From Squalus acanthias (taxonomy: Eukaryota): 64,000 nucleotides of DNA. The notes under the pieces are model-generated. The model was not told the DNA's origin and did no database searches. It saw nothing but the letters and a program-made list of their open reading frames with translations. The DNA lies in assembly GCA_030390025.1 (NCBI GenBank), contig CM059432.1, positions 41,108,001 to 41,172,000 of the forward strand, given 5' to 3'. Below are positions 1 to 62,431 of the stretch, piece after piece (the stretch's first letter is position 1; the number at the start of each line of letters is the position of its first letter). A program made the translations under genes and the position numbers.

Positions 1-1425
1 AGGTTTTGTTGTGTATCTGTGAACAAAGGAAGGAATATTTAGTGAACATTTTTTTTCTTAAGTGGTGTGCCTCTTTTAAATGATCCAATTGTATATATTA
101 TAGTACATTTTAAATGCCATTTTTCTGCCTTCCTCCAAAAAACTATTCTTACCCACATTTTTAAAAGCTTTGTTAAGTACGTTAACATTTCTGTTCATCC
201 ACTATTTGAGTGTCATGGTCTATAATTATTACAAGGATGCAATTATCATGGATTTTTTTCTATTGAAATGTCAGCAGATGGCAATATGGTGACATATCTA
301 ACTCGATCAGTATTCTGACTGTACCCTATATAGATTGGGTTTATAAATTAATCTTTCACAATCTCCTCCTGAGTAATGGTGGAACTTTACATATTAATTG
401 AAATATGCTTAAAGGTTGCACTGTGCTCTAGAAAGCCAGTCTTATAGCTGCATAAAATATGCTGTGGTATTTGAATTCAAATCCTAAAGAAAAGAACATT
501 TTAGTAGAACGGGTCTGACTATTTTTATAAGCTGTTGTGTGGGTTTCATGTATTTATGGTTTCAGATTTCAGGCTGGTTTTCTTTGTTGCCAAAAGATCT
601 GTCTTTCAACTTACTGTTGCATCGGAAATTTAGAATTAAAAAAGTAACTTTGACGAAGTGACTTCATTTATTTAAAAAAAAAAGTTAATCAATAATTTGG
701 TGCAGGCTGTAATGCGGCTGCTTATTTCAACTTATTGAGCACAGTACAAGCAAGCATGATCGAGGAAGTGAAGTTCCTTGATTGACATCAGAACTAGCAT
801 GGGGAATGCAAACAACACTAAAAGCTCCACAGCAGGATTACTGGGGCCCTGTCGGGGATCAGCGTACGGACTGCAGAATACTCGTGCATACTGTTGTTTC
901 ACAACAACAATAATTCTTTGTTCATAGTTTGATGTAAATTTTTCTGTTTCAAACATAAAATTAGGACCAAGTTTGTCTTTTAAGGTTGAAGCTGTAGTTT
1001 TTAACAGCTACGCTATGAGATTAAATATCAGGCTAATTTTGGTTATGTAGGTTTGTGTGCAATACAGCAAAATGATAGCTTTAGAACACCTGTACCTTTG
1101 CACAGGGATTCTGTTGCTAACGCTTTCAAAACCAGAAAAACAGATCAGATAACAACACAGCCCAGCATTTGATTGGTCTCAGCATCAGGGGCTTGCACAG
1201 TCTCATTTTAGTCTGGAGCCTTAAGTAGGTCAGGCCTAGCTTAGCCAGCCTGCAGATGATCAGCTGCAGATGATCTCTGGATGAAGTCAAGCTGAAAGGA
1301 ATTTCAATGAACCCTTCCTGATAGGCGTAGGCCTAAAAAGGCTGGCCTAGTTAAGCTTCAGCTTATAGTGCGAGTGTAGGCTTTGCAGTCAGTCTGAAGT
1401 TTGTGTGATGTGCTCTGTACAAAAT

Positions 1426-1808
1426 ATGTTAGGGAAAAAATCAAACCGATCTTCAAATTTTACCATATATGAAAAGATTGATTTGTTGAAACTTGTACGG
1501 CCTCACATCAAAGTCCTGGAGGTTCATAAGAATAATCAGGCTATAATAGTTGAAAAAAATCGTTGCTGGGAAACTATAGCACAGCAATACAATGCAGTTG
1601 GAGTGGATCGTCCGCCTCGTAGCGCACAGGCTTTGCGAACACTATATAAACGCATTAAAGAAAGTGCTAAACAAGAGATAGCCAGGAGGGAGCAGCTGCA
1701 TCCAGACTATAAAGGAAACGTCTCTGAGCCAACCAGAAGAATTCTAGAAATGATTCCTCACATTTTCCAACCACTTTTGAAGGTGATAGACAGCGACAAC
1801 TTACAACG
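1426..1808 (+). CDS. FSBP: FSBP coding exon 1: Myb/SANT-like DNA-binding domain
   Basis: [32 protein letters not shown]...[44 protein letters not shown]...[12 protein letters not shown] closely matches the recalled N-terminus of human FSBP ([32 protein letters not shown]...[26 protein letters not shown]). It ends at a phase-2 donor CG|GTAAGA at 1809. An in-frame upstream ATG at 1408 is possible. Confidence 0.93.
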
Positions 1809-5330: not shown

Positions 5331-5332
5331 AC

Positions 5333-17351: not shown

Positions 17352-17925
17352 GCCTGGTGGAAGTTCTGCTTCTGAACAAGATTCCTGTGTGGAACAGCCT
17401 GCTAGCTTGTATCCACAACCTGGAACATCAGGCTACCAGTCCCATTCCTGTCCTGATTGGATAACGCCAGAGTCAGAACCCGAACATGAAGAGAAACCTC
17501 CTCCGATATTAACTATACTCTCACAGCCAAGTGAAAGCTTGGAGCAACAGAAGAAAACAGAGACTCAGCAGGCCACAAATGGCTCTGCCTCACCTTTTTC
17601 ATCTTGTGGGGCGAGAGTATCCTTAACACCATCTCCGAGGCCTGCGAGAAGGGAAGATGTTTTGTTCAGTCACCACCAGCACCACAGGGGTGCCCTACAC
17701 CATATGACCAGTCATGATAATGGAGAAATGCAGTTGATGTCAGCAGAGGAACATGAGATAATTATGGAAAATCAGAGGAAGTTTGGACTGTATCTTGATG
17801 AAAAAAGAGAAAGCCTTAAAAGAAAACAAGTATTAGAGGAAGACCTGTTAAGGGCAAAAATCAGAGTGGAAGAATTAAAGGCAGCAAGACTACAACAAGG
17901 GTTGCCAGCTCTCCAAGATGCCTAA
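17352..17925 (+). CDS. FSBP: FSBP coding exon 2 (terminal), with C-terminal coiled coil
   Basis: Polypyrimidine acceptor TTTTTCTTCAG| at 17351. Its phase joins exon 1 in frame (CG+G = Arg). EEHEIIMENQRKFGLYLDEKRESLKRKQVLEEDLLRAKIRVEELKAARL matches the recalled FSBP C-terminus. Stop TAA at 17923-17925; ATTAAA at 17947. Spliced CDS is 957 nt (318 aa). Confidence 0.92.
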
Positions 17926-29319: not shown

Positions 29320-30078
29320 GCGAAGTGATACATTTTGGTAGAAAGAATGAGGAGAGGAAATATAAACTAAAGGGTACATGAACAGAGAGACCTAGGGGTA
29401 TATGTGCACAAATCATTGAAGGTGGAAGGGCAGGTTGAGAAAGCAGTTAAAAAAGCTTACGGGGATCCTGGGCTTCATGAATAGAGGTATAGAGTACAAA
29501 AGCGTGGAAATTATGATGAACCTGTATAAAGCACTGGTTCAGCCTCAACTGGACTATTGTCCAATTCTGGGCACCGCACTTTAGGAAGGATGTGAAGGCC
29601 TTAGAAAGGGTGCAGAAAAGATTTATGATAATGATTCCAGGGATGAGGGACTTCAGTTACGTGGATAGACTGGGGTTGCTCTCCTTAGAGTAGAGAAGAT
29701 TGAGAGGAGATTTGATAGAGGTGTTCAAACTCATGAGGGGTCTGGACAGAGTAGATAGAGAGAAACTGTTCCCATTAGCGGAAAGGTGGAGAACCAGAGG
29801 ACACAGATTTAAGGTGATTGGCAGAAGAACCAAAGGCGATATGAGGAAAAACTTTTTTACTCAGCGAGTGGCTAGGATCTGGAATGCACTGCCGGAAAGG
29901 GTGGTGGAGGCAGACGCAATCATGGCTTTCAAAAGGGAGTTGGATAAGTACCTGAAGGAAAAAAAGTTTGCAGGGATAGGGCGGGGAGTGGGACTAGCTT
30001 GAATTGCTCTTGCAGAGAGCCGGCACGGGCTTGATGGGCCGAATGGCCGCCTTCCGTGTTGTAACCATTCTATGATTC
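29320..30078 (+). mobile_element. CR1 LINE 3' portion
   Basis: RGDLIEVFK...TRGHRFKV...IWNALP; tail ATTCTATGATTC. Confidence 0.9.
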
Positions 30079-30619
30079 ATGTTTTAGCATTATGCCTTTA
30101 AATTAGCCTTTAAAGGTGTTCAACTTGTTCTCTACTGAAGTCTGCTTGAACAAATCAATTTGCTTGAGCTTTTCCGTAATTTCCTTTTGAAGTTAGCTTT
30201 TCTAAAATTATATACTTGGCTTCTGGTACTTGGTATTTCTAAATCCCAGATTATGTTGAACTTGATCATTCTGTGGTTGCTATTCCCATGGATGCCATAA
30301 CTTCCATTTCCTATAAGTTGTTTGTATCACTTACAATTACCAAGTCGAGGTGTGCACTGCCTATTGTGGCTTCCATGAAGTACTTTGATTGTGAACATGA
30401 AAGAGTAAACTGTATGGGTGGCAATTGTAAAGTATGGGGAAGGAGCCCAGGATGTTGAAGCCCAGCTAGGCATGTTGTGATGGTGATGAAGGAGGGTCAG
30501 AAAATTGTTGGAGCTAAAGTTGTAGATAAATTGACTCCATTTTTCCCCTCAAAATATAGGGGAAGAAATTCAAATCACGATTGCGCATTTTTCTGGCGTA
30601 AAATTGGCATTAGACCCCC

Positions 30620-31432
30620 AAAGCAGCATTTCCCAAACCCGCGACCTCTACCACCTAGAAGGACAAGGGCAGTAGGCGTATGGGAACACCACCACTTCAA
30701 GTTCCCCTCCAAGTCACATACATAGAAACATAGAAGATAGGAGCAGGAGTAGGCCATTCGGCCCCTCGAGCCTGTTCCACCATTTAATGAGATCATGGCT
30801 GATCATCCAAATTCAGTACCCTGTCCCTGCTTTCTCCCCATATCCCTTGATCCCTTTAGCCTTAAGAAATATATCTAACTCCTTCTTGAATATATTTAAT
30901 GAATTGGCCTCAACTGCCTTCTGTGGTAGAGAATTCCACAGGTTCACCACTTTCTGGGTGAAGAAATTCCTCCTCATCTCAGTCCTAAATGGCTTACCCC
31001 TTATCCTTAGACTGTGACCCCTGGTTCTGGACTCCCCGGCCATCGGGAACATCCTTCCTGCATCTAGTCTGTCTAGTCCTGTCAGAATTTTATAAGTTTC
31101 AATGAGATCCCCTCTCATTCTTCTAAACTCTAGCGTCATTCCTGCTATCCCAGGTATCAGTCTGGTGAATCTTCACTGCACTCCCTCCATGGCAAGAACA
31201 TCCTTCCTCAGATAAGGTGACCAAAACTGCACACAATACCATCCTGACTTGGAAATATATCGCCATTCCTTCTTCATCGCTGGGTCAAAATCCTGGAACT
31301 CCCTACCTTCACCACACGGACTGCAGCGGTTCAAGAAAGTGGTTCACCACCACCTTCTCAAGGGCATTTAGGGATGGGCAATAAATGTTGGCCTTGCCAG
31401 CGACGCCCACATCCCGTGAATTAATTAAAAAA
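30620..31432. mobile_element. 3' end of a second CR1/L2-superclade LINE family (+) with a nested CR1 3' end (-, about 30719-31238)
   Basis: Flanks match 53810-54120; the inner segment encodes RRMRGDLIETYKIL...LWNSLPQ on the minus strand. Confidence 0.85.
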
Positions 31433-32168
31433 ATTTGTGGTATGATCTACCACGCCCGAGCTATGCTGAAATTGCACAGGAGGCCATATTGGCGTGGGTG
31501 ACTTTTAGTCATCCAGAACACCCATCTGAAATGGGCGTTAAGCTTCTTAAATAAACAAATCGATTGTAGGACCCCAAATATGAAATTTAGGTACAAATAG
31601 ACGGAGCTTGCATTAATTGTGCCAGCCTTTGAGTGGGCTAACATGCGCTCCTTAAGGGGACTGCTCCAGGCTGCTCATTTCTCACCTGCAGCTTGCCTGG
31701 CAGCATTTAAATGAGGTCCCGAGCCAAATGTGGCTTCAGCCTCAGGCCAGCATGGACCAGCATGCAAAGGAGTCTTTGCTCCACTGACTTTGGGTCCGTT
31801 TTGAACGCAAGTCAAATTTCTTGGTCGTAAATTTTGATGTATTTATTTACTATCAAATCTCCCATTGATTTATCGTGTTATGTCAAATGATGAGCTATTT
31901 TATAAAAAAAAATTGTCGCAATTTAAAAAGTATTTAAAGAGAAACAGGTTTCAGAGAAGCCTGCCTTACTACAGTAAATGCCTTCTAATTCACCTGAGTA
32001 TATATACCTACTTCCAGCAATTTGATTTTGTGTCCTTAAAATAACAGCCAGTTGCACATGACTCCCTCTTAGCAGCAGAATAATCGTGTGTTACATAGTA
32101 TAAGTCCTTCTAAAACATCATATTTTCTGAGTTAGTGAGCAGTGCTTTGGGAGATCCACTAATATATT

Positions 32169-32905
32169 GGGCCAGATTTTGCGCTCGATGGCGAACGAAT
32201 GGCGCGAGCTGTTCATTAAATTTACACTTGCCCACAGACTTTCTATGGGTTTTTTGTACTGGAACATACTGTAAATTAGAAAGCCAAAATGGCGCGGTGC
32301 CCTCTACAGGGGATCTGGGACCTGTGTGAACAGGGAAAGCAACTGTGTATCTCCTTAACCAATCAGATTGAAGAACTGTTAATGAGCAGCGCAGCGTCTG
32401 AACCACGAAGTATAGAATATTTCAAATATTTCAAATTCAACATCAAATTAGCTACAGAAAGGGAAAGAGAGTGAGATAAGAGAAAGAAAGAAAACGTTTT
32501 TTTTTTAAATCTCCAACAATATTTAAAATCTGAAGGAATGAGACTCCACACATATAAAAGTTCATTTTCAGTGCCAGTGATGTTGTTTTGGCAGTAATTA
32601 AGACTTACCACACCGTTAAAAGGGTATTTACATTGGAATAGGCAAGTCCTAACATTTTCTAGTGAGCTTAGTTCCTATCTCTGAGTTAAGTCCAGGAACT
32701 TCTCACCGTTCAGTGTATTTGAATGGTGAGCCAGTTGGTGAGATGCCATTGTAGCGCAGCTTTTGGAAGAGCAAGACATCTCGGACAGCGACTTCTGGAT
32801 TTCCGCATTTAACTGCGCATGTACAGTCACTGGAAGTTTGATTTCCATGTAAATAACAGTGAGCACGGTTAGCTTCACTGTTATTTCTACAGCAAAATCC
32901 GGCCC
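32169..32905. mobile_element. Non-autonomous DNA transposon, probable Harbinger type (family B, copy 1)
   Basis: TIRs GGGCCAGATTTTGC / GCAAAATCCGGCCC; 3-bp TSD ATT; interior related to 50559-51300. Confidence 0.8.
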
Positions 32906-33271
32906 ATTAAAAACATATTTAAAAGAATACACCGTCAAGATATAAACAGAAGCACATTGTTAAAATAAAAATTATTTTAAGTTAATACTCAACTCTGCAA
33001 TAGTGTTTGAAGAGCATGGATTACTTATCCAGTATCCCTACGTCTTCCTGCATTATTTTCAATTGTTTTCGCACTCCACAGATGAGCACAGAAACATTTA
33101 TGTGTTGGCACGGGTGTGGATATAGAGCAGAGATTGGGAAAAGGAGGCTCAAATTTTTTTTTTAAAAAGTGAAAACCATTTTTCAATAAATAACCCATAA
33201 CTTTATTTTAGCCTTCTTGAGAGTGTTCCTCCATTTTCTTTTTATGTTTTTAGCAGATTTGTGGTCTGGAC

Positions 33272-33840
33272 ATGAAACCTCCAGGCTGGATTATTCCAGT
33301 GTTCTCCTGGCCTTCCTCCCATCGTCCATCCTCCACAAATTTCAACTCATCCAAAACATTGCTGTCCATATCCTATCCTGCACCAAGTCCCGCTTGCCCA
33401 TCACAACCATCCTCGCTGACCTACATTAGGTCTTGGTCCGCCAATGCCTCAAATTTAAAATTCACATCCTTGTGTTTAAATCCCAACATGGCTTTGCCCC
33501 TCTCTATCTCAGTAACTTCCTCCAGCCCCACAAACCCTGGTCCCTCAAACTCCCCATTCCTCCTACTCCGGCCTCACACCATTGGTAGCTGCGCCTTCAG
33601 TCGTCAAGGGCCCACTCTCAGGAATTGCCTACCTGAACACTTCTGCCTCTGCACCTCCCTCTGCTCCTTTTAAGATCGTCCTTAAAACCCACCTCTTTGA
33701 CTAAGCTTTAGATCCCTTATCCTAATTTCTACTCCTTCGGCTTAGGCTTGCTGTTTGTTTTTTTCCCTCTTGCCTCTGTGAAGTAAATTGGGATATGTTT
33801 CTCTGATAAAGGAGCCGTACTAATACAAATTAGTGTTGCT
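33272..33840 (+). mobile_element. L2 LINE 3' fragment
   Basis: TSRLDYSSVLLA...QLIQN...ITTILADLH is a typical L2 C-terminus. Confidence 0.8.
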
Positions 33841-36800
33841 ACATTAATTGGTGGGGAGTGGGGAGGGTTGGTGTGGAGCTTCAAAGAAGAATTCCGAAAG
33901 TAAGGTGATAGAACCTCAACAGCATTTTGTGTGACTGGATGTGGCTATGATCAGCAGATTGGAACACAGCTCTTTGTATGCATGGCCTATTTACCTTCCT
34001 TAATACTGGATTTATATTACGTCACTGCCAACTGAGGCAGACGCTGCACTAGCGGCAGTGCTGTAATATAACAGCTGGTAGTAGTGCCTATGGTAACATG
34101 GCAACCCATCACAGGAGGTGTCTTTTTCACTGGTTTTGCCAGCAGCAAATATTACCAGCCGTGGGTCACCATCTGTTTTTTATCATTGCTGACCTGTGCA
34201 GTGCTTCCTCCGACATCAGATCCATGGCCAGAAAACTGAAATGTCGACTGCAACGTTTAAATGGCTATGAATGTGCAGTTGTTTTTGTGTTGGGCTAGTG
34301 CTCTGAAATGTGATGCAGTGTAAATTTGCTGGACTCCAGACCACCAGGAGCTGAAACAAATTGAAAGGAGAGCTTGGGACTGTGCTATCATCACTTTGAG
34401 AAAATCCCACTCCTTTTCCATGTTCAAACAGAAATTAAACATTTTTGTTCCAAACATTCTTTGTTGTGCAGATTAAGTAATATATAAAAAATTTAACCTA
34501 GCAAAAAATGTAAACGTCAGTCAAAAATTTGTCTCTTGGATTTATATTATAAACATCATTTCAACAAATGTTATGCTGCATTAAGAGGTCCTATAGACTA
34601 GATTTTATTTGCTTTCTTGGCCTACTAGGTGTCACAGTTAGTTATTAAATATCACACGTGTAAGAATGTTTGTTGATTCCTAATTTCACAAATTGAATGA
34701 TTTATTGACAGTAAAATCAAAAGGTTTAAAGGTTAGCAAGCCAGATCCCTTTGAGTGCTGTGTTCCATTACGGCAGACAGTGTTGCAGTTAAAGTGTATT
34801 CTTGTGGAATTCTCACTAATTAACTGACAAGCATAGCAGTACGAAGTGGTGATCCTTTCTTTGTGACACTCAATGGTTTTCTGCAGGGAAACTGCGGGGA
34901 ATCATCCTGGCTGGATTTCTGAAGTGGATGTGTACGGAATAGCAATGACATGCTTTGTAAATACAGTAGTACTGTGTAGATTGTGTATATCGTTAAGATG
35001 CAAATTCATTATCCCGTGACTTAAAGCATTCAATGTTTCTGTGTGTGTACCAGATAAAGAAAGGGAATTGAATTCACAGAACACTGTGTACTGTGCAAAT
35101 TTTATGCATATCTCTCTAGTTGTACTTAATAAGACTGTGGGTTTGTTTTTGATTGTTCAGTGATTTATTTCCACTGTTTGAGGCACTGCAGCAAAAGGGT
35201 GACATTGTGTGACTGTTACTGTACTTTGGCTCCCTGATTATTAAAACAGTTAAAGGTCGCTGTATGGTGTCACTTTACTTGGGAGCTTTCAGATACTCCA
35301 AAAATTAATTCTGCTGCTACACACAAATGGTGCATACTGCAAGAGATGCTATGCCAGCACAAACTGTTTCAATGTCGTTTTTTTCATGTTTTTAAATGAA
35401 ATACTTAATTTGCTTTACTAAAATATTATGCAGGTGACCTGATGCTGCATTTTCCTTTGCATTTATAAACAAACAAAGTGCCTTGTCTTGCTTTTTCAAG
35501 TAGTGATGCTACTTTTATTCCCCTTTCACCTTTTAAGGCTTGCCTCCAATTACAACTGCACTATCAGAGGCACTTTTATTGTGTAAATGGCATGATTCAT
35601 GTGCTTCCAGGGGAATCATCTGAAGGAAAAAGTTTCACACCTTGCCCCTGCAGGCAAAGTGCCAATGGCAGTAAAGAGATAAATAGCAATCACTGTTGCC
35701 ATTGGGCAATGGATAGATCCTGGCCCGGATAGGCTGAGAGCTCAGTCTGCCTCTTTGCAGGCCACCCCCTGATAATAACAATAATCTGTAGCCAGAATGA
35801 TAATCATGAATACGACTTTGTAGCAACTATGCACACCCAATTCCGATGTTTCTGAATCCGCTTCACATTATAAGCAGGGCAAATTCGGTAGCTAAAACTA
35901 GCTCATATAACCGACCACTTTCCCTATTATTAAACAGGGTATTAGTGTTGCACAAGACAAAGTGGTCATATCTGGTTATTGCACGTAAAACAACAGTGAC
36001 CGAGGCTTCCCTGATTTGCCCCATACATAAATGGACTGCCTGGTGTGGTACTGAGTTATACAAGCTAGTAAAAACCCAGTTTCAGTTTCTGCGCTTAGTT
36101 AGCAGATCTTGACCAGAGTTCAGTGTTGAAGTGGCTTTAGCTTCCCTGAGCTGAGTGGGGTGAATATCATCCCAATCGTGATTGCAGTGACCCCTGTTGG
36201 AAAGTGCCTGTGTGTAAGCATGGGGTGAGAACACATTCAACTGCATTTGCCCCAGACGAACCTCACACGTGAAGAATGGCTACTTGAGCAAGGTGCTGTA
36301 GGGCAGCAGGCACATGTGTAAATATACCCGAGCTTGAGTCAGTGCCTTCAGGATCATAATTAGAGAGGGAGGAGATGCAATTCTGTTTTGAATGTTGAAA
36401 GAATTTCTGTTGTTAACCCAGTTCAGCTTTAAGGACTTTGTAAATAATTTTCCTTGTCAGCATTAAACTCCAACTTCATGTTTTGTATTGCACTAATGAT
36501 AGTATAGTAATCTCTTTCTCCCCTCCCCCTTGCAGCCTAGTTCCTGTCTCGGTGGTTGGCAGGAACTAGGGGTGAAGAGTAGAGGTCAGTGCTATTTGTA
36601 TACAAAACACGTGATGGCAGGGTTTGATGTGTAAGAAAAAAATTTCAAAAATCTCTAAAATTGATCTGGTTTTGCAACATATTTGGTAAGTAGGCAATGT
36701 TAAAGAGCTTTAAAAATAGAAAAGGGATATGTAGGACTGCAATTTAAGTGTATATTTTATTTCAGCATAAAAATTTTCAAAACTCAAATATTGTTCTGCA

Positions 36801-37206
36801 GCTGCATACATTTCAGATCAACTAAGTTTATAGGAAATAAGTTTATACTTAGATATGTAGAATAATGGCCATTGACAGCTTGCCATTATACACTTAACAG
36901 CTTCAATGGATTAGCTGGGCGTTTCTTACACAGTCATTGAGGGATTAGTCTGACCTTCCTTGACCCCTGGTTTAGCATTATGCAAGACTCAGGGTTTTAT
37001 ACTACACAATAGAGACATTCAGCACCTCATTACTCTGAATATTCAAGCTGAATGGGTCCTTTTGCACATCATTACCTAAGAAAGCAGGTTTTGGGTGTGT
37101 TTCTGAAGTGGGGGCTGGCCTTTGGAGGTAGTCTGATTTAAAAGAGCAAGTCAGAGCTCTAGATTATTCAGTGCAAAGTTTAGTAACTGAACAGTTCAGT
37201 TACACC

Positions 37207-37895
37207 ATGGAATCCACAAGAAAAAAACAGAAGGAACTTACTTTATCTGAGAAGATTCAAGTTCTTGAATTGCTTCAGAGGCAAAAGATCTCCCAAATGG
37301 AACTTGCAAAACGTTTTGGGGTTACACAGCCTGTCATCTCCAGACTAATCAAGAACAAGGAAAAAGTCCTGATGGAATGGCACAATAACAGCAATCCAGA
37401 TCGCAAACGCAAAAGGGAAGGGAGGGATAGTGATGTGGATACAGCCCTCTTGCAGTGGTTCCAGATTGCCAGAGCACAACATGTACTCGTCTCAGATGAA
37501 GTCTTGGCTGCGAAGGCCAAGGGCCTAGCGGATGCTATGCAGATCAGGAATTTTGTTCCAACTGTTGGCTGGATCAACAGGTGGAAAGCTCGTCACAGTG
37601 CCTTTTTGCAACAAGCGCATGGAGAAAGCGATGGCACAGGTCAGTCAGTGGGCAGTGCACCACAAGAGGTTGTGCCACCAGAAGGAATGACTGAAGAGGA
37701 ATTTCACCAGTATGTGGAGCAAGCTGCTATTAAGGTATGTGTTTGGGATATAGCTGATCAAGAACCAGGAAACAACATGAAAGCGATTACAAAGTCAGAA
37801 GATATTGATGTTGAGGAAGAGAAATCTATGCCTGTTTTTAAGATGGCAAGAGGAAGTAATGGCCAACTAGCATCTTCATCGAACCAATATAACAT
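37207..37895 (+). CDS. Exon 1 of predicted chimeric gene: TIGD3-like pogo/Tigger DNA-binding region (psq-type HTH plus CENP-B-type HTH), no DDE domain
   Basis: Kozak ACCATGG. LTLSEKIQVLELLQRQKISQMELAKRFGVTQPVISRLIKNKEK...RKRKRE...VDTALLQWF...KAKGLA...FVPTVGWINRWKARH resembles the recalled TIGD3 N-terminus. The frame is uninterrupted and ends at a consensus phase-2 donor AT|GTAAGT at 37896. Confidence 0.85.
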
Positions 37896-38084
37896 GTAAG
37901 TTTAACCACTTTTCACTTTTTTTATGGACTACTTTTAATTAATTTACTGAAAATTAAGGAAAACGTTGTTCAAACAGAGACTTTATATTAAATTACAGGT
38001 TTTCCTTTTTTGGTTCTCCTCATGAGAGTTAAACTGTTCATTATACCTGGTCTCTGCTGCTGAGATGTAGGTTTAAAGATGTAT

Positions 38085-38540
38085 TGTCAGCTTGGCTCAG
38101 TTGATTGCACTCTTGCCTCTGAGAAGGTTGTAGATTCAAATCCTGCTCTGGATTTGAGCACATAATCTGGGCTAACACTTCATGCAATACTGAAGGAGTG
38201 CTGCATTGTTGAAAATGCCATCTTCCGGATGAGCCATTAAATTGAGGCCCTGTCTGTCTTCTCAGATGGATGTAAAAGTTCCAGTGGCACTATTCGTAAG
38301 TAAGTAGGAAATCTCCCCTGCTATCCTGACCAACAATCCTCTCTCAGCCAACACCACCAAAAACAGGTTATCTGCTCATTCATTTGCTGTTTCTGGAACC
38401 TTGCCGTGTGGAAATTGGCTGCCATGTTTGCCTACATCACAACTGTCATAATACTTCAAAAGTAACCAGCTAGCTGTGAAATGCTTTGGGACATTCTGAG
38501 TGCGATGAGGTACTATGTAGTTGTAAATTATTTCTTCTTT
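38085..38540 (+). mobile_element. Deu-domain tRNA-derived SINE, near full length
   Basis: Head TGGCTCAGTTG...GATTCAAATCC; Deu-like core; tail GCTGTGAAATGCTTTGGGAC. Confidence 0.75.
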
Positions 38541-38624
38541 CTTCCCTTCAGCAACACACCATCAAGAGTCAGAACTTTGAATTCTTATTCTTTTCTTTCT
38601 CCTAGTTCAAGGACACTGAAGCCA

Positions 38625-39058
38625 ATTGTAATATAGCACCTTATCACATCACTAAGAAATATCACATGCCATGAATTAAATTGACGAACACTGACTGTTC
38701 TTATGTAGGCAAATGTGGTAGCCATTTTGCGCACAGCAAGATCCCACAAACAGCAAATAGATGAATGATCAGGTAATCTGTTTTTGGTGATGCTGGTTGA
38801 AAGAGGAATGTTGGCCAAGACACCAAGAGAGCTCCATTCCATCAAGTAGTGCCAAAATCCACCTGATGGAGACAGGGCCTCAGTTTAGCATCCCATTTGA
38901 AAGATGGCACTTACAACAATGGATTACAACACTTACAACTCCCACATTATTGTGTTGAAGTGATAGCCTATGTCATGCGCTCAAGTCATGGAAGGCGGAT
39001 GAACACACACTTTTCTGACTCCGATGCAAGAGTGCTTCTAACTGAGCCAAGCTGAGAC
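38625..39058 (-). mobile_element. Deu-domain tRNA-derived SINE, inverted relative to 38085-38540
   Basis: Reverse-complement head ...AAGAGTGCTTCTAACTGAGCCAAGCTGAGAC; core GCAAGATCCCACAAACAGCAA. Confidence 0.75.
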
Positions 39059-39761
39059 TCCATTGTACATAAACAAAATTATGTCTTGTTCTTTCCTTTT
39101 ATAAAATTTTGCCTCCATTTTTTTTTTCTCCTCTCCACCTCTCCTGAGGGTGTAACTGCCTTGCTTGGGAATGGTTCCATGGGTGCCAGTCACCCTCTGG
39201 TATATTTTACAAGTGATGATTTTGAGCCTTGACGGTAAATGTTCGTAGGCTACTTAACCACAAAAGTCAAGCCCAATCCGGGCCTTATTGACATCCTGGA
39301 TGCACGTCCAGCAGGGGTTGTTAGCGGCAATCAGGAGTGCAAATCTCAGTGATTATTTCCCCTCTGGTCATTGAAGTCCGTTGCAGTTTGCTTACCTTGG
39401 CCCTAGATAAAATAATTCAGACAAAGTTGGGGAATTGAACTTCCCTGTTTTGTATGGCTCCACTATTTGCTGCTTAAATTTGAATAGCCATTGGGAAAAC
39501 CATTTTGTCTGTTTGTAATCAAAAGCAGCTATACAGTTGCAATGTTTAAAAAAAAAAATGGTGAGCACACTTGTTTATAAACAGCGAAACATTGGCTGTG
39601 GTTTTACACCTGGTGAATTCCTAATCTTAACTAAGAGGGATGCTGAAGTTATGTCAGAACATTCATATTTTTGAACACTAATTTTTTGCAATAAATGGTT
39701 GGGGAAATTATGGAACTAATTATTTACTTGGTTTAACTTTTAAAATTTAATTTTTATACAG

Positions 39762-40314
39762 GTCCTATGGGAGGAGTTCTGCTTCAAGAAGAGATATCTG
39801 TGTGGAAATGCCTAGCAGTTCTTATTCACAGCCTGGAACCTCAGGCTACCAGTCCTATGCATTTCCTAGGTGGGTAGCCCCAGAGATAGGACGAAAGCAT
39901 GAAGGGAAATCTCAGTTAACTGCTCAGCCACAGGCGAGTAACAGCTTTGAAGGACTGGACAAGGCAGAGACTCATCAAATTACAGATGTGTCTCTTTCTC
40001 CACCTTGTGCTAGAATACCCTCCGCACCATCTCCTAGACCTGTTACAAGGGATGACCTTTTATTTCTGCAGCAGCACCAGGCGGGCATCCCACGCTATGG
40101 GACCAGGCATGAGAAGGAAATACCAGCAGTCTCCTCGGAAGAGCAAGAGCTTATCCTGGAAAACCAAAGAAAGTTTGGGTTATATCTTGATGAGAAAAGG
40201 GAAAGCCTAAAAAGATTACACGCACTGGAGGAAGAACTGCTCAGGGCAAAAATCGAAGTTGAACAGTTAAAAGCATTACGACTACGAGGATTGTCCGTGT
40301 TTAAGGACCCCTAA
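39762..40314 (+). CDS. Exon 2 of predicted chimeric gene: diverged paralogue of the FSBP terminal exon
   Basis: Acceptor TTTTTATACAG| at 39761, phase 2, in frame (AT+G = Met, then SYGRSSAS...). Colinear with 17352-17925 (QPGTSGYQS, PSPRP, ENQRKFGLYLDEKRESLKR, LEEELLRAKI). No stops or frameshifts; TAA at 40312-40314. Confidence 0.87.
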
Positions 40315-40790
40315 ATGTAGAACCATTAATGTTTTCCAATTGAGTTCAGTGTTTGATCCCTACAGTGGCTTTTTACTATCACTAAAGGGGCATTATTGAT
40401 ACAAAGAGTGTGAATTTCCACGGCGGTTCTCCCGTTTGTCTGCTGTAACTTCACCGGAAGAGCTGCGGAAACCCCTGTGGAAATTCATCCCCAAATTGTT
40501 TATCAAGACATTTTACCACGATTGTACACAGAGGGATATATGATAGTAACATTGAATCTAAATTTAGGAACTGGGCTCTGCTGATGGTTCAGTGGATAAA
40601 TGCAGCATGGTATGTAATACTGAGCCAAACAGATGGAATGTCCCAAGTTTGATCTCCGTCTGCGCTGAGTTAATTGATGTAAGTTGTGGAGGCAATGTCC
40701 TTGGGCTTGGGAGGGGAAAAAATTGACTACGGTTCCCTTTCATGACCACCATACAGTCACTCTGCTAGAAACCACTTGTGTGGACATTAG

Positions 40791-41540
40791 GGGCTGGATT
40801 TTGAATGACCCATGGAGTCGGGTTTGGAGGCGTGTGGGGGGTTAAATTTGCGGGGTCGGGGGTCCTGACTCCATCCCGCCTCCACGCAATTTTGACAAAA
40901 TCAGTCGCGGGGTTCCCAACTCCGTCCCGCCTCCAAAAGGCGGGAGAGGCCATTAAAGCCCTTAACAAGCTCTAAATTGGCTCTGTAATGCGATTTTCAA
41001 ATGTTTTAGCTAGTTTAACCCTTTTCTGACGTGAAGCACGCCTGGTGTGAAACACTCCAGTGAAACCTGGCGGGAGCACAAGTGGATAGCTGACTATCGG
41101 CTGCAGGTCCACTATTACAACAGAGATGTGATGAAGGTAGTAGTAGTATTAGGTGGTGTGAAAGTCGCGTCTGATGCTGCTGCATTGAATGTGTTCAGAG
41201 ACTGCATGGCGTTTGCTGTGAGAGGACTTGGATGCAAAAAAAACGCTCTCGCTCTCGCTGTCTCTCCTTTCCTCCCCCCACATCTTGCATTGAGGTCCGC
41301 TCAAGGCAGGTCCTCTCTCACCAACAGTCTCTCAAACTAGGCAGTCAGCAATGATGACATCATCAGAGGCGACTTTCAGACTCAAACCACTAATTAGTTC
41401 ATGGGTTCCCACATGCTGGAACTCAATTGACCAATTAAGTGAAAATTGCATCATTCTTCCACATTCAACTGGAGTCGGGTGGGGAAACACGAAATGCGGA
41501 TGACACGACCCCAACCCGACCCCAAGACAAAATCCAGCCC
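40791..41540. mobile_element. Non-autonomous DNA transposon, probable Harbinger type (family C)
   Basis: TIRs GGGCTGGATTTTG / CAAAATCCAGCCC; 3-bp TSD TAG on both sides; subterminal GTCGGG/CCCGAC repeats. Confidence 0.82.
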
Positions 41541-42734: not shown

Positions 42735-43220
42735 GACTTATATCTTGTCTATGCCTTTTTAGGATCTTAAATTATTCTGAAAAATCCCCCTGCACCTTCT
42801 CCTGTCCAGTGTAAACATTCCCAGATTCTGTATCCTCTCTTTATAACTCGGGTGCCTATTCCCAGCTATCAATTTAGTTGCCATTCACTGCACTTTCTAA
42901 GGTCTGGATCTCTTCCTCATAATATGGTGACCAGAATTATACACAGTACTCCTGGTGAATCCTAACCAGTACTCCATAAAAACTCTGAATCACTTCCTCT
43001 ATTCCTTTGGTGATAAAGCCCAAGATCTTATTTGCTGTCATTACTGTTGCTGATAGCTTCAGCGAACTAGCCATCAGTACCCCAAAATAGCTCTCCTGTG
43101 TTGTCTCCTGTAGAATAATGCCATTTAGCTTATATTGCCACTGTTTATTATCCTTTCCCATGACTTTGCATTTGTTCACATTGAATAACATCTGCTACTT
43201 GTCAGCCCAGCTTCCCAAGT
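42735..43220 (-). mobile_element. Old CR1 RT fragment
   Basis: FNVNKCKVM...ANKILGFI...QEYCV. Confidence 0.75.
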
Positions 43221-43224
43221 GATA

Positions 43225-46062
43225 AGGTTAAGATGGAGAGTGAAGTAGTTGACTCAGAGACTAGGGTCCTGAATTTAAATAAAGGAAACTACGATGGTAT
43301 GAGGCGCGAGTTGGCTAGGATGGATTGGGGAGCATTACTTAAAGGGCTGACAGTGGATAGGCAATGGCAAACATTTAAAGATCGCATGGATGAACTACAG
43401 AATTTGTTCATCCCTGTTTGGCATAAAAATAAAAAAAAAGTGACTCAATTGTGGCTAACAAGGGAAATTAGGGATAGCATAAGATCCAAGGAGAGGACAT
43501 ATAAATTGGCCAGAAAAAGCAGCAAACCTGAGGATTGGGAGCAGTTTAGGATTCAGAAAAGGAGGACAAAGGGATTAATTAAGAGGGGGGAAATAGAATA
43601 TGAGAGTAAGCTTGCAGGGAACATAAAAACTGACTGTAAAAGCTTCTATAGATATGTGAAGTGAAAAAGATTGAAGTCAAGCGTAGGTTCCTTGCAGTCA
43701 GAATCAGGGGAATTTATAATGGGGAACAAAGAAATGGCTGACCAATTAAATACATACTTTGGTTCTGTCTTCACAAAGGAGGACACAAGTAACCTCCCAG
43801 AGATGTCAGGGAACATAGGGTCTAATGAGAGGGAGGAATTGAATGAAATCAGTATTTGTAGGGAAATGATGTTAGGGAAATTGACAGGATTGAAGGCCGA
43901 TAAATCCCCAGGGCCTGATAATCTACATCCTAGGGTACTTAAGGAAGTGGCCCTAGAAATAGTAGATGCATTGCTGGTCATCTTCCAAAATTCTATAGAC
44001 TCTGGAACAGTTCCCATGGATTGGAGGGTAGCTAATGTAACCCCACTATTTAAAAAAGGTGGTAGAGCGAAAACGGGGAATTATAGACCTGACATCGGTA
44101 GTGGGGAAAATGCTAGAGTCCATTACAAAAGATGTAATAGCAGAGCACTTGGAAAACAGTGACAGGATCGGACAAAGTCAACATGGATTTACAAAAGGTA
44201 AATCATGCTTGACTGATCTACTGGAATTTTTTGAGTATGTAACTGGTAGAATAGATAAGGGAGAACCAGTGGATGTGGTGTATTTGGACTTTCAGAAGAC
44301 TTTCGATAAGGTCCCGCATAAGAGATATGCGTGCAAAGTTAAAGCACATGGGATTGGGGGTAAGGTACTGACTTGGATAGAGAACTGGTTGGCAGACAGG
44401 AAGCAAAGAGTTGGAATAAACGGGTCTTTTTCCGAGTGGCAAGCAGTGACTAGTGGGGTACCGCAGGGATCGGTGCTAGGACCCCAGCTGTTCACAATAT
44501 ATATTCATGATCTAGACGAGGGAACTAGATGTAATATCTCCAAGTTTGCAGACGACACAAAGCTGGGTGGGCGTGTGTGCTGTGAGGAGGATGCAGAGAA
44601 ACTGCAGTATGATTTGGACAGGTTGGGTGATTGGGCAGATGCATGGCAGATGCAGTATAATGTGGATAAATGTGAGGTTATCCACTTTGGTGTCAAAAAC
44701 AGGAAGGCAGATTATTATCTGAATGGCAATAGATTGGGAAAAGGGGAAGTGCAACAAGACCTGGGTGTCCTTGTGCACCAGTCGCTGAAGGTAAGCATGC
44801 AGGTGCAGCAGGCGGTTAAGAAGGCAAATGGTATGTTGGCCTTCATAACGAGAGGATTCGAGTACAGGAGCAAGGATGTCTTGCTGCAGTTGTACAGGGC
44901 CTTGGTGAGACCACACCTTGAGTATTGTGTGCAGTTTTGGTCGCCTTATCTGAGGAAGGATGTTCTTGCCATGGAGGGAGCGCAGCGAAGATTCACCAGA
45001 CTGATACCTGGGATGGCAGGAATAACGTATGTAGAGAGATTGGGTCGATTAGGCTTATATTCGCTAGAGTTTAGAAGAATGAGAGGGGATCTCATTGAAA
45101 CTTATAAAATTCTAACAGGACTAGACAGACTAGATGCAGGAAGGATGTTCCCGATGGTGGGGGAGTCCAGAACCAGGGGTCACAGTCTAAGGATAAGGGG
45201 TAAGCCATTTAGGACTGTTAGGGTGAAAATTATAGGGCTTAAAGCAGCAACGTAAAGAATGAAAGAATGTGCTGTAAAAGGTGGACTCGTAAATGAGACA
45301 AGACAGAATGGCTTCGCTGATACAGTGCGATGGGTAATGTCTATTGTCAACGTGCGTACGTGCGAGACAACTTGAAGCCCACCAAGGAGGAGCAAACGAC
45401 TACGATAATAGCACAACGGTTGCACCTGAGAACCAATCACCGCATGACCAGTCAGACCGGTCAAGCAGATGTGGCGCAACACTCTGTATGTTTATAGTTT
45501 CGGAAGGGAAGTAACAAGAAAAATCAGCTTAAAGTGCAGATTATAATCAAGTCAGTGGTGGAGATATATGATTGGGTAAGGGGCTTGTTGTTAGGAGAAT
45601 GTGATTGGGTGGAGACATTTGTATGTGATGAATTGCATATCCGGCCGTATAATGTATAAAAGAAGTTCCGATACCACTGTAACGACGAGAAGTTGATCAC
45701 TAGACCGCGGGGTCTATGGCTCTTCTCCCAGGGCGCCCTGTATAATAAACTGTGAGCTTCTGCTTTGAGACAGACTTGAGTGAATTTATTTTTCACCAAC
45801 AGGACTGAGATGAGGAGGAATTTCTTCACCCAGAGAGTGGTGAACCTGTGGAATTCTCTACCACAGAAGGCAGTTGAGGCCAATTCATTAAATATATTCA
45901 AGAAGGAGTTAGATATATTTCTTAAGGCTAAAGGGATCAAGGGATATGGGGAGAAAGCAGGGACAGGGTACTGAATTTGGATGATCAGCCATGATCTCAT
46001 TAAATGGCGGAACAGGCTCGAGGGGCCGAATGGCCTACTCCTATCTTCTATGTTTCTATGTT
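43225..46062 (+). mobile_element. 5'-truncated CR1 LINE ORF2 to 3' tail, interrupted by a solo LTR
   Basis: ORFs 43233-43664, 43671-44162, 44059-45255 ([19 protein letters not shown]) and 45780-45974; tail TTCTATGTTTCTATG. Confidence 0.95.
45216..45801 (+). mobile_element. Solo LTR, 586 bp
   Basis: Termini TGTTAGGGTGAAAA...TTTTCACCAACA; 4-bp TSD GGAC at 45212-15 and 45802-05; TATAAA at about 45655 and AATAAA at about 45744 suggest + orientation. Confidence 0.85.
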
Positions 46063-56164: not shown

Positions 56165-57130
56165 TTTTTTTTTAAATTCGTTTTTATGGGATGTGGGCGT
56201 TGCTGGCAAAGCCAGCATTTATTGCCCATCCCTAATGGCCCTTGAGAAGGTGGTGGTGAGCTGCCTTCTTGAACCGCTGCAGTCGTGTGGTGAAGGTACT
56301 CCCACAGCGCTGTTAGGTAGGGAGTTCCAGGATTTTGATCCAGCGACGATGAAGGATCGGCAATATACTTCTAAGTCAGGATGATGTGTGACTTGGAGGG
56401 GAACTTGGAGGTGGTGGTGTTCCCATGTGCCTGCTGCCCTTGGTCTTCTAGGTGGAAGAGTCCGCGGGTTTGGGAGGTGCTGCCGAAGAAGCTTTGGCGA
56501 GTTGCTGCAGTGCATCTTGTAGATGGTACACACTGCAGCCACGGTACGCCGGTGGTGGAGTGAGTGAATGTTTAAGGTGGTGGATGGGGGTGCCAATCAA
56601 GCGGACTGCTTTGTCCTGGATGGTGTCGAGCTTCTTGAGTGTTGTTGGAGCTGTAAGTGGAGAGTATTCCATCACACTCCTTACTTGTGCCTTGTAGATG
56701 GTAGAAAGGCTTTGGGGAGTCAGGAGGTGAGACACTCACCACAGAATACTTAGCCTCGGACCTGCTCTTGTTGCCACAGTATTTACGTGGCTGGTCCAGT
56801 TAAGTTTCTGGTCAATGGTGACCCCCCCAGGATGTTGATGGTGGGGGATTCGGTGATGGTAATGCCATTGAATGTCATGGGGCGGTGTTTAGACTCTCGC
56901 TTGTTGGAGATGGTCATTGCCTGGCACTTCTGTGGCGCGAATGTTACCTGCCACTTATCAGCCCAAGCCTGAACGTCGTCCAGATCTTGTTGCATGCGGC
57001 CATGGACTGCTTCATTATCTGAGGAGTTGTGAATGGCTCTGAACACTGCAGTCATCAGTGAACATCCCCATTTCTGACCTTATGTTGGAGGGAAGGTCAT
57101 TGATGAAGCAACTGAAGATGGTTGGACAGG
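56165..57130 (-). mobile_element. Same LINE family as 52573-54125, 3' portion
   Basis: WADKWQVTFAPQKCQAMTIS; T-run at about 56165. Confidence 0.9.
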
Positions 57131-57134
57131 ACAC

Positions 57135-58856
57135 TGAAGGGTACTGAAGGAGGTGGCCCTAGAGATAGCGGATGCACGAAGTATGATTTTTCAGAATTCA
57201 TTAGACTCGGGAACAGTGCCCATGGATTGGAGGGTAGCTAACGTTACCCCACTATTTAAAAAGGGGGGTAGGGAAAAAGCAGGTAATTACAGACCTGTAA
57301 GCCTTACATCAGTTGTGGGCAAAATGCTGGAGTCCATCATTAAGGATGAAATAGCGGAGCACTTAGCAAATGGGGACAGGATAGGACAGAGTCAACATGG
57401 ATTTACAAAGGGTAAATCGTGCTTGACTAATCTATTGGAATTTTTTGAGGGAGTAACTGGTAAAATAGATGGGGGAGAGCCAGTAGATGTGGTGTACCTG
57501 GACTTCCAAAAGGCCTTCGACAAGGTCCCACATAAAAGATTAGCATGGAAAATTGAAGCTCATGGGATAAAGGGGAAAGTATTGACGTGGATAGAGAACT
57601 GGCTGTCAGATAGAAAACAGAGAGTTGGAATAAACGGCTCATTTTCTGAATGGCAGGCAGTAACAAGTGGGGTACCACAGGGATCTGTCCTGGGTCCCCA
57701 GCTGTTCACAATTTACATTAATGACCTGGATCAGGGAGTCGGATGCAGCATTTCCAAATTTGCAGACGACACTAAACTAGGAGGGGGGGTGGGCTCAGAG
57801 GAGGAGACCAGGAAGCTCCAGAGCGATTTGGACAGACTGGGTGATTGGGCGGATAAATGGCAGATGCACTATAATGTGGACAAGTGCGAAGTTATCCACC
57901 TTGGGTGCAGGAACGGGAGGGCAAATTATTATTTAAATGGCAATAAATTGGGAGAAGGGGAAGTACAGAGAGACCTGGGTGTTCTTGTACACCAGTCACT
58001 GAAGGCGAGCATGCAGGTGCAACAGGCGGTCAAGAAGGCAAACGGTATGCTGGCCTTCATAACAAAAGGGTTGGAATACAGGAACAGGGATACCTTGCTG
58101 CAGCTGTACAGGGCACTGGTGAGACCACACCTCGAGTACTGTGTACAGTTTTGGTCGCCTCATCTGAGGAAAGATGTTCTTGCCATGGAGGGGGTGCAGC
58201 GGCGATTCACCAGGCTGATACCAGGAATGGCGGGATTGACCTATGAGGAGAGACTATGTAGTTTAGGGATGCACACACTGGAGTTTAGAAGATTGAGAGG
58301 GGACCTCATAGAAGTGTATAAAATTCTGACAGGTCTAGACAGACTAGATGCAGAAGGAATGTTTCCCTTGGCGGGTGAGAACAGAACTAGAGGACATAAT
58401 TTAAGGATAAGGGCTAAACCATTTATAGAAACATAGAAACTAGGAGCAGGAGTAGGCCATTCGGCCCGTCGAGCCTGCTCCACCATTCAATACGATCATG
58501 GCTGATCATCCAAAATCCAGTACCCTGTCCCTGCCCCCTCACACAGAATCCCCATCGAGCCTGCACCGACACATATCCCACCAGATATTTAGGACAGAAA
58601 TGAGGGGGAATTTCTTCACTCAGAGGGTGGTGAACCTGTGGAACTCATTGCCACAGAGGGCAGTGTACGCCAGCTCATTAAATATATTTAAGAGGGAATT
58701 AGATATATTTCTACAGGCAAAAGGGGTTAAGGGTTACGGAGAGAAGGCGGGGACGGGATACTGAATTGGAGGATCAGCCATGATCTCATTAAATGGCGGA
58801 GCAGGCTCGAAGGGCCGGATGGCCTACTCCTGCTCCTATCTTCTATGTATCTATGA
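57135..58856 (+). mobile_element. 5'-truncated CR1 LINE with a 162-bp antisense insert at 58425-58586
   Basis: 427-aa RT ORF; the frame resumes (FRTEMRGNFF) after the insert; tail TTCTATGTATCTATG. Confidence 0.93.
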
Positions 58857-59304
58857 CACACCTGGGCAGTTTTCCACATTGTCGGATAGATGCCAGTCTG
58901 CTCACCTCATTGCAATGGTATATATCTGCTTTAATTTTTTTTGGTGTAAGTGAATTCATCAGTATACAACTCAGAACAGGACTGTTGCTGTGATCTAGGT
59001 TTATTAATTGAATTTTAGTAGACAGATTGAAGTTACCATGGATTGCTCTATAATAGCAATTCTTTAAACTGACGGCTTTGTAGGCATCAGTTGTGTTATA
59101 CTGAGTCATAGAAACCAGGAGATCTCAAGTTTGATCTCCTGTATTTGCTGAGTTAGCTTATCTCAGGCAGGACAGCTGTGTGGTTGCTATATTGACCCCT
59201 GCATACCTAGGCTAGAGAAAGGAAGAATGAGTTGGACTTCCCTCTTCTATAATTAGCTATCCAGTGACCCCTGCTGAAAAGTTCACTCACGGTCATGACT
59301 GGAT

Positions 59305-61635
59305 CCAAAGCTGAGTTTCTGACCCCATATCCTCTCCATCACCAACACTGCCTACTTACCTCTCCGTAACATCCTCCGTCTCTGCCCCTGCCTCAGCTCA
59401 TCTTCTGCTGAAACCCTCACTCATGCCTTTGTTACCTCTAGACTCGACGATTCCAATGCTCTCCTGGAATACCTCCCAGCATGCACCCTCCTTAAACTGG
59501 AGCTGATCCAAAACCCTGCTGTCGTATACGAACTCACACCAAGTCCCATTCATCCATCACCTCTGCTCGCTGACCTACATTATCTCCCAGTGTGGCAACG
59601 TCTCGATTTAAAAATTCTCATCCTTATTTTCAAATTCCTCCATGGCCTTGCTCCTCCCTACCTCTGTAACCTCCTCCAGCCCTACAACCCTCTGAGATCT
59701 TTGCGCTCCTCCAATTCTGGCCTCTTGCGCATCCCCAATTTTCTTCGTTCCACCATCAGCGGCCATGCCTTCAGCTGCCTAGGCCCTACGTTCTGAAATT
59801 CACCCCCTAAGCTTCTCCGCATCTATCCCTCTCTCTCCTGAATCGTGTTTGACTAACTTGATTGAGTTTTTTTGATGAGGTAACAGAGAGGGTGGATGAG
59901 GGCAATGCAGTTGATGTTGTGTATATGGATTTTCAAAAGGCGTTTGATAAAATACCACATAATCTCATTGAAATATACACAATTCTTACAGGGCTTGACA
60001 GGGTAAATGCAGGGAGGAGGTTTCCCCTGACTGGGGAATCTAGAACACGGGGTCACAGTCTCAGAATAAAGGGTCGGCCAATTAGGATTGAGTTGAGGAG
60101 AAATTTCTTCACTCAGAGGGTAGTGAATCTTTGGAATTCTCTACCCCAGAGGGATGCGGATGCTCAGTCGTTGAGTATATTCAAGACTGAGATCGATAGA
60201 TTTTTGGATATTAAGGGAATCAAGGGATATGGGGATAGTGCAGGAAAGTGGAGTTGAGGCAGAAGATCAGCCATGATCTTATTGAATGGCGGAGCAGGCG
60301 CGAAGGGCCAAATGGCCTATTCCTGCTCCTATTTCTTATGTTCTTATTATAGGCTTGTTAGCAAAATTGAAGTCCATGGGATAAAAGGGGCAGTAGCAGC
60401 ATGGATACAAAATTGGCTAAGGGATAGAAAACAGAGTAGTGAGTGGCTGTTTTTTGGACTGGAGGGAGGTATACAGTGGTTCCCAGGGTTCAGTACTAGG
60501 ACCACTGCTCTTTTTGATATAAATTAATGTCTTGGACTTGGGGGTACAGGGCACAATTTGGAATTCTGCAGATGACATGAAATTTGGAAGTGTAGTAAAC
60601 AGTGAGGAAGATACTAATAGACTTCAGGAGGACATAGACAGGCTGGTGGAATGGGTGGACACGTGGCAGATGAAATTCAATGCAGAAAAGTGTGAGGTGA
60701 TACATTTTGATAGGAAAAATGATAGAGACAATACAAACTAAATGGTACAATTTTAAAGGGGGTGCAAGAACAGAGAGACCTGGGGGTGCTTGTGCACAAA
60801 TCTTTGAAGGTGGCAGGACAAGTTAACAAATGTTAATAAAGCATGTGGGATCCTGGGCTTTATAAATAGAGGCATAGAGTACAAAAGCCAGGAAGTTATG
60901 CTAAACCTATAGAAAACACTAGTTTGGCCCCAACTGGAGTATTGTGTCCAATTCTGGGCCCCACACTTTAGGTAGGACGTGAAGGCTTTGGAAAGGGTTT
61001 AGAAGAGATTTACTAGAATGGTTCCAGGGATGAGGGATTACAGTTACGTGGATAGATTGGAGAAGCTGGGGTTGTTCTCCTTGGAGCAGAGAAGGCTAAG
61101 AGGGGATTTGATAAGGTGTTTAAAATCATGAAGGATTTAGATAGAGTAAATAAAGAGAAACTGTTTCCAATGGCTGAAGGGTCGATAACGAGAGGGCACA
61201 GATTTAAGGTGACTGGCAAATGAACCAGAGGTGACATGAGGAAAAACTTTTTTATGCAACAAGTGGTTAGGATTTGGAATGTACTGCCTGATAGGATGGT
61301 GAAAACAGATTCAATAGTAGCCTTCAAAAGGGAATTCTATAAATACTTGAAGGAGAAAAAATTGCAAGCTTATGGGGAAAGGGCCGGGGAGTTGGAGTAA
61401 CTGGATTGCTCTTCGAAAGAGCCAACGCAGACTCGATGGGCCAAATGGCCTCCTTCTGTGCTATGATTCCTCCTTTAAGACATTCCTTGAAACCTACTGC
61501 TGCCACCTGTCCTAATACAGTATCTGTTTATGTGGCTTGGTGTCAAATTTTGTTTGATAATCGCTCCTGTGAAGTGCCTTGGGCTGTTTTACTACATTAA
61601 AGGCGCTATATAAATACAAGTAGTTGTTGTTGTTG
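59305..61635 (+). mobile_element. L2 3' region split by a CR1 (about 59840-61468), which itself carries a nested CR1 3' end (about 59962-60345)
   Basis: L2 motifs FVTSRLD and KFLHGLAPPYL; CR1 motifs YMDFQKAFDK and WQMKFNAEKC; the L2 (TTG)n tail resumes at 61470-61635. Confidence 0.85.
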
Positions 61636-62014
61636 GATTAACACCACTGACTTAGTGAAGGAATTAAAATGCTTCTGATTGCTATGCAGTGAGGTCTGCT
61701 GGATACGATATGTGTGGATGTCAGGTAAGGACTGAGTTGTGGATCCATACTATGGTCAGGAGTATAGTAACAATGCATCGTATTTTATGATGAGTTGTGC
61801 CACTCATCATATGACTCCTGCTCTCTGCCTAGTAAGGGCTCAAACGCACACTTGTCAATTGTCTCAATGATTAGTAACTATCGTCCTGGAGGCAGAAGGA
61901 AGAGCAAATGGTGGCTCTTTGGTGATGGAGATTCAAACTGATTAAATCTTCCGTGGCAGACCTGGAACCCAGTAACTGACCCAGGCAGGTCCCATTGATT
62001 AATGTTTTGGAGGA

Positions 62015-62422: not shown

Positions 62423-62431
62423 AGAACGTGT

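Follow-up and report, generated by a model that had tools for sequence, protein, structure and literature searches.

Two genes within one RAD54B intron

The window, by which we mean the whole stretch of 64,000 nt of Squalus acanthias DNA analysed here, carries two genes on the plus strand. RAD54B coding exons flank the window on the same strand, at 9.8 kb on the upstream side and 24.6 kb on the downstream side, and none was found within its 64,000 nt; the whole window is therefore one RAD54B intron, which holds FSBP (gene 1) and a second gene that we refer to as gene 2. The features are as follows.

1408..1808, plus strand: FSBP coding exon 1, encoding the Myb/SANT head (Pfam Myb_DNA-bind_5, E=1e-19), with a phase-2 donor
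17352..17925, plus strand: last coding exon of FSBP, encoding linker, terminal helix and stop (orthologues P0023, P0024 and P0041)
17767..17823, plus strand: the 19-codon core in FSBP, from translation
37207..37895, plus strand: gene 2 coding exon 1, encoding a CENP-B_N plus HTH_Tnp_Tc5 head and a post-DDE segment, with a phase-2 GT donor
37896..39761, plus strand: gene 2 intron, 1866 nt, GT-AG; the junction recurs in database models and in ORFs from assembled runs
39762..40314, plus strand: last exon of gene 2, a duplicate of the FSBP last exon (69% nucleotide identity to 17341-17893)
40132..40284, plus strand: gene 2 terminal helix, conserved, spanning some 51 codons with approximate ends, from orthologue conservation and the predicted helix
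40159..40215, plus strand: the 19-codon core in gene 2, from translation and orthologue alignment

When spliced, the FSBP exons (1408-1808 and 17352-17925) give a 324-aa ORF that matches the named FSBP of catshark (P0024), and the gene 2 exons give a single 413-aa ORF through phase-matched GT-AG sites. The tails of the two genes lie on one strand, 22 kb from each other, and share 103 of 182 aligned residues. Proteins encoded in the window group with those of sharks. DNA and protein searches of the 3.7-Gb genome found only these two copies of the tail exon, counts that are lower bounds. According to Pfam, the N-terminal Myb/SANT domain is present in gene 1 and absent from gene 2, and gene 2 is consequently not an FSBP orthologue. 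Elsewhere in the window (3500-16900, 43200-45200 and 57100-64000) there are dense LINE fragments with reverse transcriptase and endonuclease frames, some of them open for 430-490 codons, which we take to be of the CR1/L2 type.

Gene 2 is found with the same junction in 11 species, six of them sharks (two Chiloscyllium, Stegostoma, Heterodontus and two Scyliorhinus) and five rays (Hemitrygon, Amblyraja, Leucoraja, Narcine and Pristis). Its orthologues are mostly named 'uncharacterized' in databases, and that of Pristis sits together with the FSBP tail inside a 1614-aa RAD54B model (P0012), a merge that is probably an annotation artefact. We aligned the orthologues of 10 of the 11 species, leaving out C. 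punctatum. Identity to the window is 49-52 of 52 residues in the first HTH (eight full-length orthologues), 46-56 of 56 in the second HTH (10 orthologues), 31-34 of 34 in the post-DDE segment (orthologues aligned) and 48-51 of 51 in the terminal helix (10/10 orthologues); the spacer at the deletion point retains only 9-18 of 22 (10 orthologues). Residues on both sides of the exon junction are also conserved. This protein-level comparison indicates that the head of gene 2 is under purifying selection across species.

One alternative sees a pseudo-exon in the second tail exon, or has it spliced, without the HTH exon, for instance to the FSBP Myb exon or to RAD54B; the apparent fusion would then be an artefact of annotation. 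A splice from the Myb exon to the second tail would be in frame, since FSBP exon 1 too has a phase-2 end, one sawfish model merges everything into RAD54B, and ORFs with only the head or only the tail exist. Against this, (i) models from the 11 species are concordant and the residues flanking the junction are conserved; (ii) five of the seven assembled-run ORFs in a skate cluster span the junction (contigs of 1302-1832 nt), the other two being one head-only and one tail-only; and (iii) none of the 19 proteins found with a profile of the helix, each representing a 50% cluster, joins a Myb head to a gene 2 tail. The junction-spanning ORFs would imply spliced RNA, with the run type not on record and no such run coming from Squalus acanthias itself. 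We consider the artefact very unlikely, in agreement with the preliminary description, which had held the second copy to be old and translated; the exon is intact in all 11 elasmobranch species, and translation is itself inferred from selection.

We also compared positions 30000-41000 with contigs of 4 of 13 runs. The joins listed were taken up by repeats, and none at the exon junction was among them. One contig of a near-identical run reads through the acceptor without splicing (39634-39929), as expected of pre-mRNA or DNA, and in run X3 one piece ends at 37891 with 34 letters unaligned beyond it, which fits a splice. Among the differences listed, three in the tail coding region (X3) and one in the head (X2) are all synonymous. 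Some database isoforms have shorter or altered tails (P0003, P0005 and P0021, from Hemitrygon, Heterodontus X2 and S. torazame X2); these suggest that the tail exon has internal splice sites (39870-40010), one at an AG/GT near 39870.

The shared core and the terminal helix

The stretches 17767-17823 and 40159-40215 (plus strand) encode the same 19 residues. A recount of both bears out the preliminary description: 9 of 57 nucleotides differ, spread over 8 of the 19 codons, and every change is synonymous, an outcome with a probability of 1.8e-7 under neutrality. To allow for the picking of the best window, we asked how often 19 or more residues in succession would match at any position along the exon. 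Neutral simulations at a divergence of 0.31 per nt, that of the exon itself, gave such a run once in 5000, and permuting the identity pattern gave one 15 times in 20000. At the core's own lower divergence (9/57), such runs appeared in 4.3% of 5000 simulations, and run length alone is thus weaker evidence than the split between synonymous and non-synonymous changes. The frame is preserved as had been described, since the exons measure 574 nt (17352-17925) and 553 nt (39762-40314), 21 nt apart, and each follows an AG and begins in phase 2.

Synonymous sites in the core are saturated between the paralogues (pS 0.89, pN 0), which is a sign of selection and excludes recent gene conversion. Gene conversion between nearby exons could in principle keep them identical, and the copies do lie on one strand at a distance of 22 kb. 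However, synonymous divergence peaks in the core rather than in the linker (pS 0.42), and tails group by gene rather than by species in the tree described below; the probability of this explanation is in our view negligible. Paralogue dN/dS (Nei-Gojobori, JC) is 0.135/1.96 in the helix (about 0.07, with dS near saturation), 0.38/0.62 in the linker (0.61) and 0.30/0.88 over the whole exon (0.34), and pN/pS is 0.18 for the helix (CI 0.08-0.35) and 0.70 for the linker (CI 0.51-1.00). The strong divergence reported earlier for the linkers holds between paralogues (60 of 122 residues identical) but not among orthologues, in which linker identity to the window is 73-88% for nine of ten species and 57/88 for the tenth.

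In the 10 aligned gene 2 orthologues, the core is kept at 19/19 residues in the five sharks and 18/19 in the five rays. Catshark FSBP carries one core change that catshark gene 2 does not have, and the last core residue is changed in ray gene 2 and retained in sawfish FSBP. Bony-vertebrate FSBPs differ at several core positions. Judged from these alignments, conservation of the core alone is ordinary purifying selection on a helix of about 55 residues common to all vertebrate FSBPs.

To date the second copy, we built a tree of 27 tails in which 11 sequences presumed to be bony-vertebrate FSBPs (some of them unnamed) served as the root. The 11 gene 2 tails form a clade (100/100) with a long stem, beside five cartilaginous-fish FSBP tails; this topology, which carries a long-branch warning, dates the duplication to the interval between the divergence from bony vertebrates and the parting of sharks and rays. 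Two divergent FSBP-like proteins in the lungfish Protopterus (P0037 and P0038), both Myb-headed, look on sequence grounds like an independent FSBP duplication.

The terminal helix is predicted to be continuous over about 55-60 residues (pLDDT 90), and the model of a gene 2 orthologue has folded HTH domains, a disordered linker and one long C-terminal helix (356-412). The helix is kept in all FSBPs sampled and is identical at 40 of 51 positions between the paralogues, with 11 of the 32 positions outside the core differing. In the best a/d heptad register, 7/16 positions are hydrophobic in FSBP and 8/16 in gene 2, a weak pattern, and aromatic and charged residues abound in the identical block. 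Comparison with Pfam, PDB sequences, PDB folds and the Atlas gave no match for the helix. Given this and the weak heptads, its role is one that we infer: a coiled coil is plausible, and we lean towards self-association through the helix. A profile of the helix, searched against 1.84 billion representatives (each for a 50% cluster), found 19 proteins, with an HTH head in only one, a Myb head in seven and no Pfam domain in 11. No named invertebrate protein was among them, and the helix of FSBP and gene 2 therefore cannot be equated with that of Apontic, the fly homologue of FSBP.

Two readings of what the helix does overlap with our main reading of the gene, given below. The helices of the paralogues may pair, giving a two-headed factor with the Myb head of FSBP and the HTH head of gene 2, or allowing gene 2 to titrate FSBP from its targets. 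Consistent with this idea, the 19 consecutive residues have stayed identical despite saturated synonymous sites, the two genes share an intron and a strand and are possibly co-expressed, and both paralogues were kept alike in a core that varies among bony-vertebrate FSBPs. On the other hand, the lineage-specific changes (catshark FSBP versus gene 2; ray gene 2 versus sawfish FSBP) are unmirrored in the partner, the helices differ at a third of the positions outside the core, and independent constraint on each copy would account for the identity equally well. Pairing of the paralogues is possible, if short of probable.

Alternatively, the helix may be a docking site for a third protein, a co-activator or co-repressor, bound by both paralogues and constrained independently in each. 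The aromatic and charged composition of the identical block and the weak heptad register would fit such a role, as would the partners that titles of published reports name for FSBP (X11alpha) and for Apontic (MBF1). Against it, a continuous amphipathic helix of 55 residues exceeds the needs of a docking motif, and Apontic itself is called a bZIP protein in the title of a report. Furthermore, HTH heads of the transposase type usually function as dimers, and gene 2 has lost the C-terminal helices of the donor, which would have served dimerisation or partner binding. Overall, we regard a shared docking site as possible but likewise short of probable.

The transposase-type head and its relatives

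The head of gene 2 matches Pfam CENP-B_N as well as HTH_Tnp_Tc5 (E=2.8e-8 and 1.4e-11) and the CENP-B structure 1HLV (E=6.6e-11), and Pfam detects no DDE_1 in gene 2. Searched as a whole protein against the Atlas, gene 2 retrieved only generic CENP-B/Tigger clusters, under 0.9. The head has one copy in the genome and its next match is 59% identical over the head: L004, a single-ORF protein of 503 aa with both head and DDE_1. The gene 2 exon aligns to residues 3-148 of L004 and then to about 377/384-428, skipping residues ~149-383 (~235 aa), within which DDE_1 occupies 198-371. Gene 2 aligns on both sides of this domain, and the DDE domain (~235 aa) has been deleted from it. The likeness of the post-DDE segments is also detectable in DNA; by eye, it extends to an acidic stretch and ends before the last helices of L004.

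Orthologues of L004, named TIGD3-like by NCBI, are present in three other sharks (87-91%), and Callorhinchus has a protein that is 73% identical. Two trees of the head were built, one of 36 rows (after dropping six short matches and three non-matches) and one of 30 rows (after removing six more long or distant ones); both place gene 2 as the sister of the L004 group, with Callorhinchus inside the latter, at support of 98/95 and 97/95. An AU test (p = 0.007) rejected nesting of gene 2 among the elasmobranch L004 orthologues, the grouping having been picked once the first tree was known. The head lineage thus diverged before the chimaera split, and the sequences would fit either a duplicate of an already domesticated gene or a sister transposon as its origin. 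A search for gene 2 in chimaeras found no orthologue, at a limited sensitivity that also missed known relatives of 53-58% identity. We also considered whether gene 2 could be an active or recent pogo transposon and rejected this, as it lacks the DDE domain, occurs in one copy and has no long inverted repeat around the exon; a search for TIR-like inverted repeats there returned 14 short pairs only.

Several other pogo-related sequences were encountered. In L004 (1495-3006), the third acidic residue of the DDE domain looks replaced, and L004 seems from its sequence to be a pogo gene domesticated in cartilaginous fishes and not listed in Gao et al. 2020. It is L006, not L004, that groups with squamate TIGD3-like proteins in the head trees; L006 (1465-2763) is a GC-rich ORF of 433 aa with a head and partial DDE_1, flanked by low-complexity sequence, and it may be the true TIGD3 orthologue. 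The squamate TIGD3-like proteins (P0053-P0067) are 620-690 aa long, and several have an N-terminal C2H2 zinc finger, seemingly a separate fusion in the same family. Further open frames with a CENP-B-type head are found in L005 (1426-2433), L016 (1456-2244) and L007 (a minus-strand ORF of 237 aa); L005 and L016 have no DDE_1 match, which suggests repeated DDE loss among the pogo-derived genes of this genome. Finally, more than 100 genome matches at 25-28% identity, with open frames of 600-620 aa, have the look of a young, high-copy Tigger-like transposon family.

Proposed origin and comparison with known systems

We favor, with fair confidence, the view that gene 2 is a host-transposase fusion in which a transposon head replaces the Myb head of FSBP, and it is likely to be a lineage-specific transcription factor of sharks and rays. 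In a plausible scenario, the last exon of FSBP would have been duplicated locally within the RAD54B intron, a DDE-deleted copy of a TIGD3-like element would have been captured beside the duplicate tail, and the phase-2 donor would have joined the head exon to that tail. Gene 2 could then be transcribed from the upstream RAD54B/FSBP promoter, its head may bind a DNA motif resembling a transposon end, and the FSBP helix might supply a surface for dimerisation or partner binding in place of the helices that the donor lost. None of five flank tests for non-coding homology, between gene 1 and gene 2 or with the flanks of L004, rose above shuffles, and one of two coding tests did; no non-coding homology survives that would show the course of the duplication. 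A more speculative and on balance unlikely extension is that FSBP underwent a DNA-binding swap early in cartilaginous fishes, with heterodimers of FSBP and gene 2, both from one RAD54B intron, carrying Apontic/FSBP regulation to transposon-end motifs.

A host-transposase fusion at this locus would extend transposase capture beyond tetrapods by an old and well-conserved case. The layout is unusual, in that a transposon head without its catalytic domain takes the place of a DNA-binding exon of the host. As a natural chimera that keeps only the terminal helix of FSBP, gene 2 would mark this helix, which is to date without a family model or structure, as a portable module whose function is directly testable. 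Databases have concealed the gene under the label 'uncharacterized' or within a merged RAD54B model, and our literature search, which did not extend to subscription papers, found no published description of it.

Precedent comes from the survey of host-transposase fusions by Cosby et al. (bioRxiv 10.1101/2020.05.07.082677), which searched tetrapod annotations and in which, as the main pattern, a host repressor domain, for example KRAB, is placed N-terminal to the transposase. Its main text, in the portion available, mentions neither FSBP, TIGD3 nor shark, and its Table S3 could still list gene 2. Like those fusions, gene 2 has a transposase DNA-binding domain on its own exon, spliced in frame to host sequence, is under purifying selection and is a predicted transcription factor. 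Unlike their main pattern, its transposase part is N-terminal and replaces the DNA-binding exon of the host on a duplicated tail.

The pogoR-derived genes are CENPB, TIGD3, TIGD4 and TIGD6 (Gao et al. 2020, PMC7386202), and according to the same source, as far as its text was available, the DDE domain is found in all domesticated pogo genes; in the part of its table available, Callorhinchus or Rhincodon have rows only for JRK, POGZ, TIGD5 and TIGD7, with none under TIGD3. Gene 2 shares with the pogoR genes the CENP-B_N plus HTH_Tnp_Tc5 head, and its nearest relatives are those named TIGD3-like by NCBI. It differs from TIGD3/4/6 and CENPB in not retaining DDE_1, and with the domain gone it is not a TIGD-type gene.

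Harbinger Myb-derived genes include MSANTD1-4 and NAIF1 (PMC9392472), with which FSBP shares a Myb/SANT-like domain that gene 2 lacks; FSBP goes unmentioned in the available text of that source, and descent of FSBP from Harbinger is therefore not demonstrated. Published accounts treat FSBP as the homologue of fly Apontic and report that it controls Shh and cyclin E in cell culture (PMC5622130, PMC7394757). Gene 2 resembles this family in its FSBP linker and terminal helix and in its position within the same RAD54B intron. It differs from FSBP in having no Myb/SANT head, and its DNA target should therefore differ from that of FSBP.
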